This document shows positions 4,054 through 10,392 of a DNA stretch of 15,163 nt, piece by piece. A model generated the notes under the pieces. The model made no database searches. It saw nothing but the letters and a program-made list of their open reading frames with translations, and was not told the origin of the DNA. Position 1 is the first letter of the stretch. Each line of letters begins with the position of its first letter. The DNA is from a virus (lineage: Duplodnaviria > Heunggongvirae > Uroviricota > Caudoviricetes), in IMG/VR virus record IMGVR_UViG_3300015156_000025, positions 1 to 15,163 of that record, one strand, 5' to 3'. A program made the position numbers and the translations under genes.

Positions 4054-5266
4054 TTTATCAACGGTTGTAGATTTTTATAGAGCATCATCGAAGCCCCAAT
4101 TCGACGGACGTTCTTTTTCTGCAACTGTTGAAATAAATAATAACAATCAACGTTTGGTAAACTTGTTAGTAAATTCACATAAAGCCTACGGTTATTTTGA
4201 AGATGTTGATATTAATAATGAGTTCATTGACGAAGACGATTTAAAATCACACCCAATTAAAATTGGAGATAAATTCTCATACACTTACATATCCCCTAAA
4301 AATGGAGCAGAACGTTTCTATAACTCAATTCAAGAGTTCCTTTGTATAAACTCACTCAAGAAAGGTGTAATTCCTAAAGAGTATTACATAATCGATGAGG
4401 ATTTTCATCCGTCTGATTCAAGTAAACCGGACGAAATTATAAAAATCGAGAAAATTTGTGCAATTATTTCTTCCCTGGCTGAGATTGCGCACTTTCACGA
4501 TACAAAATCGGAATCTTCAAATTATCGTTTAGTTTTCGTGAAAGATTCTGACGCAAAATCAACATCTATTATTTTAGAAACGTGCATTACACCTAAGATG
4601 CTCAATATAAATGACATTGATGATGCTATCATCAAGAGTCTTTTAGATGTAAAAAACGCCCAAATCCCCCATCAAGCAGAAAAAACAGGTATTTTCAGGA
4701 ATACCATAGTGGAGTTTATTCTCGATAACAAATATGATTTTGAAAACCTAATTTGCCATTGGGATAAATTTGTAAAGCTATTTGAAAATAATTTATCCAC
4801 GTATATGAGTGGTTTTTCATTCCATAAGGCACGAAAAGAAATTGCGAAGTCTGAAGCAGAGTTTGCTGAAAAAATCTCAAAACTTATTACTGATTTGACG
4901 ACAAAAGTATTATCAATCCCTGTGTCTTTACTGGCATCCTTCGGGATTATAAAACTAACATCAAGATCTGAAATGTTACTCGTTTTATTAGGTGTATTGT
5001 TAAGCTCACTTATTTTATATATGGTATTACTCAATCAGGATAAACAATTAAAACATATTTACCATGCTAAAGATATAGCATTTATGCCTTTTCTAAAAAA
5101 CAATGAAAATTATCCAGAAGACCTTAAGAAGGACATTAATGAGGCTTTATATGAACTATCAAAGAGCCAAACCAAATGTGATAATACAATAAAGTTATTT
5201 ATGTATTTGGCTTGGCTACCAAGTTCTATTGCAGCAGGAATATTTCTTGCGAAGATTTTTATTTAG
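4046..5266 (+). CDS. Hypothetical protein with large soluble N-terminal region and C-terminal 2-3 hydrophobic helices (candidate membrane effector)
   Basis: ATG at 4046 overlaps the upstream stop (ATGGCTAA); a GTG at 4034 is the alternative start. Hydrophobic runs VLSIPVSLLASFGIIKL, MLLVLLGVLLSSLILYMVLL and IKLFMYLAWLPSSIAAGIFLAKIFI lie in the last ~120 residues. I recognise no domain in the N-terminal part. Confidence 0.7.
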   Translation: MANLSTVVDFYRASSKPQFDGRSFSATVEINNNNQRLVNLLVNSHKAYGYFEDVDINNEFIDEDDLKSHPIKIGDKFSYTYISPKNGAERFYNSIQEFLCINSLKKGVIPKEYYIIDEDFHPSDSSKPDEIIKIEKICAIISSLAEIAHFHDTKSESSNYRLVFVKDSDAKSTSIILETCITPKMLNINDIDDAIIKSLLDVKNAQIPHQAEKTGIFRNTIVEFILDNKYDFENLICHWDKFVKLFENNLSTYMSGFSFHKARKEIAKSEAEFAEKISKLITDLTTKVLSIPVSLLASFGIIKLTSRSEMLLVLLGVLLSSLILYMVLLNQDKQLKHIYHAKDIAFMPFLKNNENYPEDLKKDINEALYELSKSQTKCDNTIKLFMYLAWLPSSIAAGIFLAKIFI

Positions 5267-6389: not shown

Positions 6390-7151
6390 TCACTTTTCCG
6401 ATACAACACGGCGGGAAGAATCAGTAATCTGTCGAACAATATCCCGGTGCTTGTTCAGCTCCCGCAGCGCGGCGCAGACTCGCTCCCACTTCTGGACATG
6501 ATTTTTCGCCCGACGCAGTTCGCGGTTTGCCATATGCAGCGATGGCAAAATCAGGTCATCAGCTCGCGTTTCAGTAAACGATGGCAGCGACTGCACAATG
6601 TCCGCCACAGTCTCTGTTTTAATATCTTCCTGTGTTGCAGCTTCCTGTACTGGTAACGCAACGCATGCAGGCTGAGGAAAGGCTTTACCATCAGTTTCCG
6701 CTACCGATGCTGCTTTCGGCTCTGCTGGTAAATTATCGCCCGGCATACAGTAACGAAATTTACCGTCCTGATTAGCACGAATCAGACGGCCTTTGCTGAT
6801 TGCCATTGCCAGCGTTGAAGCCACTTTGCGGGATGTTGTACCGAACAGCGTAGCCAGTTCATCCGCCGTTTGTGGTCCGCGTTGTTCAATCGTCGCGGTT
6901 AAATCGCACTCTGAGATTTTCGCTACTGTCGCCGTGGTGGTTTCTTCCGGCTGTTCTTCTGGCGCTGGCTGTTCCTGCTGAACGTTGTTATCAACCACAC
7001 GCCAGGTGTATACGCTTTTATCAACGAAGCCAGCCTTTTTCAGTTCCCACAGCTCGTTCAGTACTTCTTCACGACTGATATCAAGTCGCGCAGCCAGCTC
7101 TACCGACGTGGCTTTTCCCATCGCTTTCAGTGCGTCAAAAACAGTCTCCAT
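6390..7151 (-). CDS. Hypothetical phage DNA-binding protein (two winged-helix-like regions)
   Basis: 253-aa ORF; [30 protein letters not shown] and [33 protein letters not shown] both look like wHTH motifs. It lies between the DnaC-like gene and the nin-like genes. Confidence 0.55.
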
Positions 7152-7171
7152 AAATTTCCTCCCGGTAAAAA

Positions 7172-7918
7172 TTACTTTTCAATACCTGGCTGACCAACAT
7201 TCGGGCGCCAGCTCTCCCAGTTAAAATTCACCCAGCGCCCGCCGTTCATGGTCATGCGATCCATAATCCGCTCGCCGAGCAATGTTTTCATGGCCTCATA
7301 GTTCAGGTTTGTCAGCATTCCCACGCTACGCATCGACGCTGTCCGTCGATCAATAATCTGGTGCAGTACCACCTGCTCGTTTTTCGTCTCGCGCTGAATG
7401 CCAATTTCATCAAGAACCAGCAGATCCACTTCGCACAGTTCCCGCAAAAATTTTTCGCCTGACTGCCCGTCGTCATAGCTGGCGTGCAGGGCGCTCATAA
7501 CATCAGCCACGGTAACCACAATCACTGTCTGACCGTCTTTCAGCAGGCGATTCCCGATAGCTGCCGCTAAGTGATTCTTCCCGGTACCAGGTTTTCCGCT
7601 GAACGCAAAATTTGTACACCCGGTCATCAGTTCATCGGCGATGGATTTCGCCTGGCTTAACGCGTATCGCTGGCCGTCGTTCTGCACCTGGTAATTCGCA
7701 AACGAGCATTTACGGTGCAACGGCTGGATGCCTGAGCGATTCAGAATTTTTTCCACCCGCAACTGACGATTCAGGCGGTTGATCTCCTCGCTACGTTTCT
7801 GGCCTTCAGCAAGTTGCCACTCGCGCCACTCCGCAACCGTTCTGAATGGGGCGGTTACATGTGGTGGGGCCAGTCTGCGGATACGCTCCAGAACGCCTCC
7901 TGTCGCAATATTTTTCAT
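7172..7918 (-). CDS. ydaV: DnaC/IstB-like replication ATPase (helicase loader), Rac YdaV-like
   Basis: Walker A motif [15 protein letters not shown] and Walker B LLVLDEIG; 248 aa, the size I recall for K-12 YdaV. Confidence 0.85.
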
Positions 7919-7924
7919 GGTCTG

Positions 7925-9061
7925 TTACCCCCTGAAGCCTGGCGGGATCGCACTGTCCGGCAACGAGACGGTGTTAACCTGTCGGAGCAACGTCTCAGGC
8001 CGAACACCTTTCGGCGCGAACAGGCCCTGGTATTCATTGGCGATGCTGTGTCGAATCACCTGCTCAGGTGTAAAACCCTGCTGACGGAATTTTTCCAGTT
8101 CCCGTATCGCCCCGTTAGCGCCCTGCTCCGTTCGAATCGGTTTTCGCAATGCCTGTCTGAACCGGACCCACTCATGCCAGAGTGTTTCCGGCAACCAGTC
8201 GGGCAGATCAACAGACAACGGGTCAAATTTTTTCTGGCGAACAGCCCCACCGATAACCAGAATTCCCTGCTCGGTGTGCCTTGCGATATCACTGCGCCGC
8301 AAGACACATATCCCGGTTTCAACAGCACCGATTTTGAGCAGTGATTTCTGTCGCGGAGAATTTCGGTCAAGCTCGATCCCACACCGAACACCGTTCCTGT
8401 CAGTCACGACGATATCAATCCGCCCTCCGCAGCCGTCACCACGCTCTGGCACCGGATACTCACGACAGACATCCAGGCCAGCAGCCTGCAACGCAACCAC
8501 CGCAGAATTACAAAATTCCGCTGCAGTACCGCCAGATAATCTCCCCTCAAGCACTCCAGCCACAAAATCCCGGAACTCCCTTCCGGAAGGGAAGGGTTTG
8601 GGATGGGTTAGATCAGTATTTAGATCTTCCTCTTCCTCTTCCTCTTCCTCTGGTAACGCTTTTTGATCCGTTTGTGTAACGCCGACAGCGTTACCTTTTC
8701 GTTTCAGTTCACGTATTTTTGTAACTCGCTCGTTTGTAACCGCCCGTTTTTTAGAGCTTTTTCCGTTATGGCGTTCAAAGTTAGGTAGAGAAAGCCCAAC
8801 GTCATTTTCGACCAGCCATCCAACCTGAATTAACGCATCAGCAAAACCAGCCATAAAAGTGATGCGATCTATTGCACTTTTTGTAACGCCGCGAGTGTTA
8901 CAATCTGCATTACCGTCTATCATTTGTTGATCCGCCCATGCCCAGAAGCGAATAACCTTCCCTAATGCGGCATCTGGATCAATATTCAGAATCTCAGCAA
9001 GCCTGAATATTTCCGGCTTATCCGGCGTAATAACCTCTAGCTTTATCCAGTTTGAAGCCAT
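7925..9061 (-). CDS. ydaU: Phage replication initiation protein, YdaU/DUF1376-like, with poly-Glu linker and extra central domain
   Basis: 378-aa ORF immediately upstream of the DnaC-like gene; AGGTGA 6 nt before the ATG. N-terminal part (MASNWIKLEVITPDKPEIFRLAEILN...) reads as the phage replication-protein N-terminal fold by recollection. Confidence 0.7.
   Translation of the reverse strand: MASNWIKLEVITPDKPEIFRLAEILNIDPDAALGKVIRFWAWADQQMIDGNADCNTRGVTKSAIDRITFMAGFADALIQVGWLVENDVGLSLPNFERHNGKSSKKRAVTNERVTKIRELKRKGNAVGVTQTDQKALPEEEEEEEEDLNTDLTHPKPFPSGREFRDFVAGVLEGRLSGGTAAEFCNSAVVALQAAGLDVCREYPVPERGDGCGGRIDIVVTDRNGVRCGIELDRNSPRQKSLLKIGAVETGICVLRRSDIARHTEQGILVIGGAVRQKKFDPLSVDLPDWLPETLWHEWVRFRQALRKPIRTEQGANGAIRELEKFRQQGFTPEQVIRHSIANEYQGLFAPKGVRPETLLRQVNTVSLPDSAIPPGFRG
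8625..8650 (-). repeat. Hexanucleotide repeat (TCTTCC)x4 encoding an E8 tract in the ydaU-like protein
   Basis: tcttcctcttcctcttcctcttcctc on the plus strand; translates as PEEEEEEEED on the minus strand. Confidence 0.9.
8676..8694. repeat. Iteron-like inverted repeat GTAACGC-n5-GCGTTAC inside the ydaU-like gene
   Basis: gtaacgc cgaca gcgttac; related half-sites at 8653..8660 (gtaacgct), 8721..8729 and 8737..8745 in a T-rich stretch. Confidence 0.45.
8882..8902. repeat. Iteron-like inverted repeat TGTAAC-n9-GTTACA inside the ydaU-like gene
   Basis: tgtaac gccgcgagt gttaca; shares the TGTAACGC core with the sites at 8676 and 9074. Confidence 0.4.
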
Positions 9062-9073
9062 TTGTTTTCACCT

Positions 9074-9094
9074 TGTAACGCTCGCAGCGTTACA
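9074..9094. promoter_or_regulatory. Perfect 9-bp-arm palindrome TGTAACGCT-cgc-AGCGTTACA between the ydaT-like and ydaU-like genes
   Basis: tgtaacgctcgcagcgttaca, just upstream of the ydaU-like ribosome-binding site; same core as the intragenic repeats. Confidence 0.5.
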
Positions 9095-9138
9095 TTTAAC
9101 TGATACCGAACAAAACAATCCGGCACGATTAATTTCAA

Positions 9139-9564
9139 TCAATGCACTACAACAGAATCGTCGGACGCTCCACCACCGCTGAAATGTGCTTTCCGGTAAA
9201 CGGCCTGGACTGCATCATCATGCGCATCAATTGCCGTACTCAACGCTTCCTGCGCCGCCAGTAATGCACGGCGTTCCAGGGTATCGAAGATGCAGAGTCG
9301 ATGACGCAGCGCGCGCGGAAGAATTGCCAGAACCGCAGGGATCAGTTTCTGAATTTTTTCCCTTTGCGCTTTCGTTTCACCTTTCAACCAACGGTGATAG
9401 ATATTCTGCTGATTGTTCCAGTCCTTGCCTGGTACCAGAGGCAATTCACCGCCCCCCCCCTGGCGCAGATATTCTTCAGTAATTGCGTTAGCGACCCACA
9501 CCTGCCCTTTTTCGGCTGCCAGGGCTAACAGCACTGATTCGATGTGCTCATGCCTGATTTTCAT
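9139..9564 (-). CDS. ydaT: YdaT-like protein (Rac prophage ydaT family)
   Basis: 141-aa ORF directly downstream of, and overlapping by 17 nt, the Cro-like gene; AGGAG 7 nt before the ATG. Size and position match Rac ydaT as I recall it. Confidence 0.7.
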   Translation of the reverse strand: MKIRHEHIESVLLALAAEKGQVWVANAITEEYLRQGGGGELPLVPGKDWNNQQNIYHRWLKGETKAQREKIQKLIPAVLAILPRALRHRLCIFDTLERRALLAAQEALSTAIDAHDDAVQAVYRKAHFSGGGASDDSVVVH

Positions 9565-9823
9565 GAATCAACTCCTGTGCATTTTGTGTGTTAGCCTTAC
9601 ATCCAACAGGTAAACCGTCGGTTGGATTAGGGTAAATGTCTGGTCGAAGCTCATGGGGTGTAACCTCGAAATTCGTTACTTCAGCAACACGTAATGCTTT
9701 TTCAGGGCTGAATCTTTCATAGCCCCCCAGCACTCGACTTACATGCACCTGAGATAAACCCGTTAGCTTCCCAAACTGTAGCTGGGTGATGTGTTTCTCT
9801 TTTAAATAGTCTCTTAAGTTCAT
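9548..9823 (-). CDS. ydaS: Cro/YdaS-like HTH regulator
   Basis: HTH segment ITQLQFGKLTGLSQVHVSRVL; transcribed divergently from the repressor gene. ATG at 9821..9823 with AGAAGG upstream; the supplied 9829 start is a TTG. Confidence 0.75.
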   Translation of the reverse strand: MNLRDYLKEKHITQLQFGKLTGLSQVHVSRVLGGYERFSPEKALRVAEVTNFEVTPHELRPDIYPNPTDGLPVGCKANTQNAQELIHENQA

Positions 9824-9855
9824 AGCCAACCTTCTACGTTATGCCTCGAACAAAT

Positions 9856-9930: not shown

Positions 9931-10392
9931 ATGAAAAAAACACGCGAAGTGATTGCAACTCCAGAAGCGAGCAAGAATTTAAAAGCCGCATGGAATGCAA
10001 GAAAAAAAGAGCTGAAGCTGACTCAAGAGCTGGCGGCAGAGTTGTTGGGATTCGAATCTCAAGGCACCGTTAGCCAGTATCTGAACGGCAAGATACCGGT
10101 AAATACCGACGCTGCGCTAAAATTTGCGGCTCTGTTAAAGGTAAAACCAGAGGACATTCGAGAAGACCTTAAAGACTTAATGAATTATGTAAGATCATCA
10201 GATACTTATGATGATAGCTTTTCAGGCAAAGGATGGAGGCTGATCAATGAAGAACAGGCAGAGTTACTTAACCTCTTCGAGATTCTACCTGCGTCAGAAA
10301 AAGCCAAACTCCTTAACCAGCTACGTGGACTAAACAAGCTCTACGAGGAAGCCTTCGAGAACATGCTGGCACTAAAGAAACGTAACCAGTAG
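9931..10392 (+). CDS. racR: Prophage repressor, RacR-like XRE-family HTH protein
   Basis: HTH segment LTQELAAELLGFESQGTVSQYLNG; 153 aa; divergent from the Cro-like gene. No Shine-Dalgarno sequence before the ATG. Confidence 0.8.
   Translation: MKKTREVIATPEASKNLKAAWNARKKELKLTQELAAELLGFESQGTVSQYLNGKIPVNTDAALKFAALLKVKPEDIREDLKDLMNYVRSSDTYDDSFSGKGWRLINEEQAELLNLFEILPASEKAKLLNQLRGLNKLYEEAFENMLALKKRNQ

Follow-up and report, generated by a model that had tools for sequence, protein, structure and literature searches.

A 15,163-nucleotide (nt) stretch of viral DNA (IMG/VR record IMGVR_UViG_3300015156_000025; hereafter the window), which is a Rac-like Escherichia coli prophage, carries on its minus strand the gene of a 378-amino-acid (aa) initiator protein (7925-9061). 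At 8625-9094, in and just upstream of this gene, lies a set of short inverted and direct repeats together with a purine tract. Examining these repeats here and in related loci, we found that 8625-9094 is probably the replication origin of the prophage, bound by the initiator whose gene it shares. The half-sites that make up the repeats are, judging from their sequence patterns, very probably the binding sites of this initiator. The initial annotation of the window had proposed a lambda-like candidate origin at this place; conservation at the DNA level, change of the sites along with the initiator, near-exclusivity to one gene family and a lambda-like layout all support that proposal.

The half-site TGTAACGC occurs four times in the window, all within 8675-9094, whereas 0.35 copies are expected, and none of 200 shuffles reached four. 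Allowing at most one mismatch, a 19-nt dyad, GTAACNC-N5-GNGTTAC, is present three times (8676-8694, 8883-8901 and 9075-9093) against 0.01 copies expected in the whole window. These are the three inverted repeats that the initial annotation had described, and all of them exist at the positions it gave, the 9074-9094 copy with perfect 9-bp arms. The shuffles and the expected counts rule out a chance origin of the repeats. The dyads lie 207 and 192 bp apart from start to start, so that all three palindromes fit inside 420 bp; two palindromes and 4-5 half-sites are inside the initiator gene and one palindrome is upstream of it. The upstream palindrome, TGTAACGCT-CGC-AGCGTTACA (9074-9094; like the arrays below, assigned to neither strand), is located in the 77-bp gap behind the ydaT-like gene, at -33 to -13 relative to the initiator ATG, and the AAGGTG ribosome-binding site starts just after it.

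Inside the gene the sites form two arrays. Array 1 (8882-8914) consists of the palindrome TGTAACGC-CGCGA-GTGTTACA (8882-8902; gene offset about +159, codons 54-60) and a degenerate half-site, GCATTACC (8907-8914). The palindrome has one arm mismatch, a G-to-A change that is private to the window (1 of 63 close relatives). Array 2 (8652-8742; gene offsets +319 to +409) is composed of the half-sites TGTAACCG (8735-8742) and TGTAACTC (8720-8727), the palindrome TGTAACGC-CGACA-GCGTTAC (8675-8694) and the half-site GGTAACGC (8652-8659). The three single half-sites correspond to the extra copies that had been noticed in a T-rich stretch, and they lie beside a polypurine tract on the gene (minus) strand, AGAGGAAGAGGAAGAGGAAGAGGAAGA (8625-8651), which codes for a poly-Glu linker and appears as a 27-nt pyrimidine run on the plus strand. 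The tract directly adjoins array 2, in agreement with the annotated contact between the repeats and the poly-Glu segment. The description of the sites as dispersed rather than tandem did not stand, as 8652-8742 is an array of half-sites and a period of 11-12 bp is seen in relatives. Across 8590-8770 the GC content is 0.40-0.45 and the AT skew is -0.41 to -0.60. On the plus strand, antisense to the gene, the palindrome at 8676-8694 is followed by CTTTTCGTTT and was flagged as terminator-like by a scan; the A-rich codons beside the site probably account for this flag.

To place the repeats in context we compared about 300 related loci. A tblastn search with the N-terminal domain of the initiator identified relatives among phages of Escherichia, Klebsiella, Enterobacter, Xanthomonas, Vibrio, Pseudomonas, Ralstonia and Salmonella, and a further 240 loci, the source of the diverse relatives, came from scanning viral and genome contigs. 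The family profile is matched by at least 4,971 clusters (90% identity), and the relatives in genomes belong to Enterobacterales, Pseudomonas, Burkholderiales, Xanthomonadales, Planctomycetota, Verrucomicrobiota and others. In about 55 of the 80 diverse loci from genomes, a perfect dyad whose arms measure 6 bp or more, (G)TAACGC-N5-GCGTTA(C), is present twice, first at +148 to +160 and again at +346 to +393 of the gene. Apart from one exception, these 5.4-kb loci contain no further copy of the dyad. The same palindrome at the same offsets is kept in relatives down to ~42% identity and in several phyla. Both sites in the relatives are half-site arrays, usually of 1-4 forward TAACG units followed by 1-3 reverse CGTTA units, and the units are regularly spaced: forward-forward pairs are 12 bp apart in 33 of 44 cases and reverse-reverse pairs 11-12 bp apart in 30 of 35. 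The epsilon15 subfamily has its first array at +54 to +110 instead of ~+148 (epsilon15 35233-35285, +54 to +106), therefore the position of the first cluster in the gene is not fixed across the family.

A purine tract behind array 2 is likewise conserved. The longest purine run just behind this array has a median length of 21 nt in 49 relatives, compared with a median of 7 in control 140-nt windows. In most lineages the tract is (AGAGA)n coding for REEKRRE, its arginines being encoded by AGA even where the host is GC-rich, and it is also present in lineages carrying a different palindrome. The tract of the window lineage is (GAGGAA)n, i.e. its poly-Glu codons are this lineage's version of the conserved polypurine DNA tract. 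The GAGGAA repeat is present in about two to four copies across close E. coli and Shigella relatives, so the tract is length-polymorphic.

Across the 63 close relatives, all three dyads vary mostly in their spacers rather than in their arms, which is the pattern that recognition by a dimer would produce. The upstream dyad is restricted to one subclade of Enterobacterales, which also has a four-codon insertion at site 1. In this subclade it keeps its place at -32 to -44 also in members whose surrounding intergenic sequence and preceding gene are unrelated, with a varying spacer and constant arms. Most members of the family have no upstream palindrome because their start codon overlaps the upstream gene and leaves no intergenic gap. 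In Pantoea sp. BAV 3049 the upstream site, 60 nt before the initiator start, is a small array, GGTAACGCAAATAGTAACGCTGCGAGCGTTACA...GAGTAACGCTAAATG, one half-site of which overlaps the ribosome-binding region and the start codon.

Codon usage was analyzed in 51 relatives filtered to <85% identity. The codons of site 1 are nearly fixed: GGT in 45/50, AAC in 42/42, GCT in 35/44, AGC, from the six-fold degenerate serine set, in 25/25, and GTT in 42/46, while other conserved Gly, Ala and Val columns have a codon entropy of about 1.7-1.9 bits. The palindrome of array 2 yields VTxxAL in 13 non-redundant relatives and xNAxxV(T/S) in 30, and reverse half-sites occupy two frames (48 versus 36). The 11-bp spacing cannot be attributed to a peptide repeat. 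Together, the alignments show conservation of the sites at the DNA level, whichever frame is translated. In the window, the last half-site, GCGTTACC, reads Ala-Leu-Pro, and the remaining in-gene half-sites read Val-Thr or Gly-Asn-Ala.

The identity of the half-site changes with the protein. Divergent initiators have a switched half-site at every position in both arrays: Ralstonia phage Raharianne carries GTAGACG-N6-CGTCTAC at +153 and +368, and epsilon15 carries GTCCGC-N7-GCGGAC in two arrays, each with two forward and then two reverse units in an 11-bp period. GTCCGC is kept in about 80 epsilon15 relatives of 70-100% identity; a GTCACG half-site is found in four lineages and GTTGCGC in one. 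In a neighbour-joining tree of the N-terminal domain the switched lineages either belong to the outgroup or form long branches among the GTAACG majority. The GTAACGC half-site is common to hosts of different phyla and therefore the site follows the protein, not the host. The partner gene downstream of the initiator is DnaC-like, DnaB-like, P-like or missing among relatives, so that the initiator is the only constant neighbour of the sites.

The initial annotation had left the frequency of the motif as a check, and the motif proved not to be common but a signature of the initiator gene. In the TL-2011b genome (44.8 kb) the dyad occurs exactly twice, both times inside the initiator gene, and in the epsilon15 genome (39.7 kb) the same holds for the epsilon15-type dyad; no origin is annotated in either record. 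An exact-pattern scan of IMG/VR returned at least 120 loci. Among the 120 loci listed, 102 have the dyad in or next to a homologue of the N-terminal domain, accounting for 167 of 187 palindromes, and the remaining 18 have single copies of the dyad.

The protein encoded around these sites is, by its sequence matches, a mosaic. Residues 1-145 match phrog_2509, 'replication initiation protein', in a profile search (E = 4.9e-73), residues ~150-272 match phrog_1347 (function unknown) and residues ~275-378 match 'primosomal protein' families including phrog_6451. The N-terminal domain (aa 1-146; 8624-9061, minus strand), the proposed binder of the half-sites, had no match in Pfam (E up to 5) or NCBIfam, and no solved structure related to it by sequence was found. 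The rest of the gene (7925-8623, minus strand) codes for the middle domain (aa ~150-272) and for a DnaT-like C-terminal domain (aa ~277-378). The latter matches the single-stranded DNA-binding C-terminal domain of DnaT (PDB 2ru8, E = 1.5e-4), and relatives of the initiator carry PF17948 DnaT. The gene had been annotated as ydaU-like. This is correct for its C-terminal part, as the last 102 residues are 89% identical to residues 184-285 of K-12 YdaU, but not for the N-terminal DNA-binding part: the first ~275 aa do not align to YdaU, and DUF1376 (PF07120), which K-12 YdaU matches at E = 2.7e-26, had no match in the initiator of the window.

An AlphaFold2 model of residues 1-146 predicts that the N-terminal domain (~150 aa) adopts a winged-helix fold, with helices followed by a beta-hairpin. 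The core (~11-95) has pLDDT values of 72-93 except for a loop at 51-60 (56). The alignment behind the model was shallow because database searches for relatives of the domain gave, among the matches listed, only close Klebsiella- and E. coli-type sequences. Arrays 1 and 2 coincide with the segments coding for low-confidence loops or linker in the model, residues 50-60 and ~107-137, and these are where, going by the prediction, the protein can best tolerate a sequence imposed by the DNA.

The middle domain (8246-8623, minus strand; ~120 aa) is inserted after the poly-Glu linker and ahead of the DnaT-like domain. It has a weak, sub-threshold match to REase_MTES_1575 and a pattern, RIDIVV...GIELD...K, that looks nuclease-like, and it is missing from the TL-2011b, Klebsiella and epsilon15 relatives. 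The closest complete genome, that of E. coli 61_150228 (96.7% identity), has its orthologue of the initiator gene annotated as a pseudogene in two fragments (locus positions 6827-7957), whereas the window has a single intact open reading frame of 378 codons.

These data suggest a mechanism in which the winged-helix domain of the initiator would recognize the half-site (T)GTAACGC, i.e. the TGTAACGC sites. Dimers would occupy the palindromes at 9074-9094, 8882-8902 and 8675-8694, and extra subunits would fill the half-sites of 8652-8742. Binding of several subunits to clusters ~200 bp apart could bend or wrap the DNA and thereby destabilize the purine-asymmetric stretch, chiefly the 27-nt tract at 8625-8651, which is the likely region of unwinding and entry. 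The DnaT-like C-terminal domain might then hold the exposed single strand and recruit the DnaC-like YdaV loader with host DnaB. As the perfect palindrome precedes the ribosome-binding site, the initiator may also limit its own synthesis by using this site as an operator.

Several observations weigh against an origin at 8625-9094. The region is only moderately AT-rich (55-60% AT), and no DnaA box within one mismatch was found in 8400-9300. The sites form three clusters ~200 bp apart, unlike the tandem iterons of lambda, and the distance between clusters 1 and 2 varies from 198 to 245 bp among relatives with no evident helical phasing. Binding by the N-terminal domain, the start of replication at this place and the position of unwinding are all three what we infer. 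The sites within the gene could be purely autoregulatory roadblocks. In addition, the arm mutation of array 1 is private to the window, so this copy of the prophage may be slightly impaired.

The main rival to an origin is that the sites serve only as operators, through which the initiator or another regulator represses or blocks transcription and translation of the replication operon, possibly with looping between the clusters, while the origin lies elsewhere. We consider this unlikely as an account of all sites, although for the upstream dyad it is probably part of the truth. In its favour, the perfect 9074-9094 palindrome stops at -13, directly before the ribosome-binding site, the ~200-bp spacing is compatible with looping, and inverted repeats serve as operators for Rep dimers in iteron plasmids. 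However, most members of the family have neither an upstream site nor an intergenic gap and carry sites only within coding sequence; no sigma-70-like promoter was found upstream of the initiator on the gene strand; the arrays always precede the conserved polypurine tract, which an operator does not need; no other origin-like repeat cluster was seen in the 5.4-kb loci or in the two complete phage genomes; and the distances between clusters lack helical phasing. The initial annotation had mentioned an operator role as an alternative. This is plausible for 9074-9094, present in one subclade only, and for the region as a whole the origin is favoured. A structural role would be a different departure, in which the palindromes act as hairpins in mRNA or single-stranded DNA (processing, stability, translation control or weak antisense termination) and not as binding sites on duplex DNA. 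Each palindrome can indeed form a hairpin, with energies between -8 and -11 kcal/mol (z between -1.0 and -2.7), the plus strand of 8676-8694 carries the terminator-like flag and the arms co-vary in variant lineages. Yet many half-sites are direct repeats in an 11-12 bp period that are unable to pair, all sites of a gene have one sequence in common, which a constraint on structure only does not require, and the arm sequence is nearly invariant across phyla, without compensatory pairs. We thus regard hairpins as highly improbable.

A slightly better case, though still a very unlikely one, can be made for a binder other than the initiator, either a host factor or the YdaT-, YdaS- or DUF1627-like product of the phage, given that binding by the initiator is inferred and that YdaT-type and helix-turn-helix proteins are encoded nearby. 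A host factor does not fit with a GTAACGC half-site kept in hosts of different phyla, and a phage neighbour does not fit with neighbouring genes that differ among relatives while the initiator is constant. Moreover, the site switches follow the divergence of the N-terminal domain, and the known YdaT site, TTGATT-N6-AATCAA, is different (PMC9986795). As to the possibility that the repeats are a by-product of protein coding, namely of a repeated GNA/VT peptide and the poly-Glu linker, or of chance, most in-gene half-sites do read as Val-Thr or Gly-Asn-Ala in the frame of the gene, and a 12-bp spacing corresponds to four codons. Against this, three palindromes are present where 0.01 are expected and one of them is outside the gene, identical DNA is translated in two or three different frames, 11-bp spacing is common and synonymous positions are frozen even in high-GC hosts. 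Dyad statistics, codon freezing and two-frame reading refute this explanation, to which we assign a negligible probability.

The layout of the proposed origin was compared with that of lambda ori, with which other lambdoid origins, e.g. in P22 gene 18, were grouped. In the lambda record four iterons are annotated in the O gene at offsets +348 to +432, followed by ACAAAAGAAAAAAGAAAAGA, which codes for the charged linker TKEKRKD. Both systems have dyad-symmetric repeats for initiator binding, proposed in the case of the window, inside the initiator's own gene at similar offsets (+319 to +409 here), located where the N-terminal DNA-binding domain ends and a charged linker, here acidic, starts, with a purine-asymmetric tract after the repeats and a helicase-loader gene just downstream. 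In both, the N-terminal domain and the origin move as a specificity module, and the C-terminal domain is common to other initiators. The repeats themselves differ: lambda has four tandem 18-bp iterons, while the half-sites here measure 7-8 bp, recur with a period of 11-12 bp and are grouped into 2-3 clusters ~200 bp apart. Furthermore, the C-terminal domain of lambda O binds P whereas the one here is DnaT-like, and the tract behind the array is A-rich in lambda and GA-rich here. Homology of the N-terminal domain to lambda O was rejected (hhalign probability 0.25%; no Phage_rep_O match in Pfam). What is new relative to the lambda principle is an unrelated family of initiator folds, a different repeat grammar, a conserved GA tract and an unusually deep conservation of the recognition sequence.

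The window resembles the Rac prophage of K-12 in prophage type and in gene order (racR, ydaS, ydaT, initiator, ydaV, DUF1627), and its initiator resembles YdaU in the C-terminal ~100 aa but differs from it by the DUF1376 domain at the N-terminus of YdaU. No GTAACGC palindromes were found in K-12 Rac. K-12 Rac was therefore ruled out as a model, its ydaU region lacking such a palindrome and the proteins being alike in the C-terminus only. The K-12 ydaU gene has its own GATGTTCAA-type repeats at +143, +228 and +352 to +458. Within NC_000913.3 (locus 4263-4578; ydaU start 4120) these are GCTGATGTTCAA/GCTGATGTTGAA at +143 and +228, four copies of AnCAGnTGTTCAA at +352 to +443 and an inverted TGTTTGAACAT at +448. 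As they share the two-cluster layout and the places in the gene, the repeats may be the K-12 counterpart of the sites described here, possibly oriJ, the origin that Rac is reported to possess (PMC3945230).

Two further systems share single features with the window. E. coli DnaT (primosomal protein I of the PriA replication-restart primosome) has a similar C-terminal domain, and both proteins end in the same NTVS-PDS-IPPGFRG motif, but DnaT lacks a sequence-specific origin-binding domain and acts at stalled forks. The iteron plasmids encode winged-helix Rep proteins (pPS10 RepA, R6K pi, F RepE). Their iterons are direct repeats 17-22 bp long that lie outside rep and are usually accompanied by DnaA boxes and a distinct AT-rich element for unwinding. 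The likeness is that a winged-helix initiator would read one half-site both as an inverted repeat near the gene start and in the origin repeats. The half-sites here differ from plasmid iterons in their length of 7-8 bp, their spacing of 11-12 bp and their position inside the gene, without a DnaA box in 8400-9300.

No description of this origin was found in the searchable literature on DnaT-like phage initiators, DUF1376, ydaU/ydaV, oriJ and iterons. We tentatively raise the possibility, which we hold to be less than an even one, that the window represents a distinct and very widespread origin-initiator module, extending from Proteobacteria to Planctomycetota and Verrucomicrobiota, in which arrays with an 11-12-bp period and (AGAGA)n are set in the gene of a winged-helix initiator, the DnaT-like tail imitates the replication-restart primosome of the host and not the lambda O-P route, and the polypurine tract is recognized by the DnaT-like domain or in the unwinding step. 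If the origin is real, a large family of phage and prophage initiators, at present labelled 'hypothetical', 'primosomal protein I' or 'DNA replication domain protein', would acquire both a defined origin and a recognition sequence, and GTAACGC-N5-GCGTTAC followed by a GA tract would be a simple signature for finding origins in thousands of prophages. The concerted switches of the sites would offer natural material on how protein-DNA specificity evolves when the sites are locked in the gene of their binder. A DnaT-like domain would become connected with origin firing, which hints at a helicase-loading route taken over from replication restart, and the presence of a complete replication module in a Rac-like prophage without the N-terminal domain of K-12 YdaU would be explained.

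The genes around the initiator fit the Rac gene order. Directly downstream lies a ydaV-like gene (7172-7918, minus strand) for a helicase loader of the DnaC/IstB-type AAA+ class (PF01695 IstB_IS21, E = 5.3e-20; PF00308 Bac_DnaA, E = 1.1e-8), which carries the annotation ydaV in E. coli genomes; beyond it, on the same strand, are DUF1627, DUF977 and antiterminator Q genes. On the other side of the initiator are the ydaT-like (9139-9564) and ydaS-like (9548-9829) genes, both on the minus strand, and a divergent gene for a RacR-like repressor (9931-10392, plus strand). The YdaT motif, TTGATT-N6-AATCAA, differs in sequence from the palindromes and is not enriched in the window (3 matches versus 1.9 expected). 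Near matches to the YdaT operator are found at 9554-9571 (1 mismatch), where the ydaS-like gene ends, a location also known from CP-933P, and at 9125-9142 (2 mismatches), overlapping the stop codon of the ydaT-like gene.

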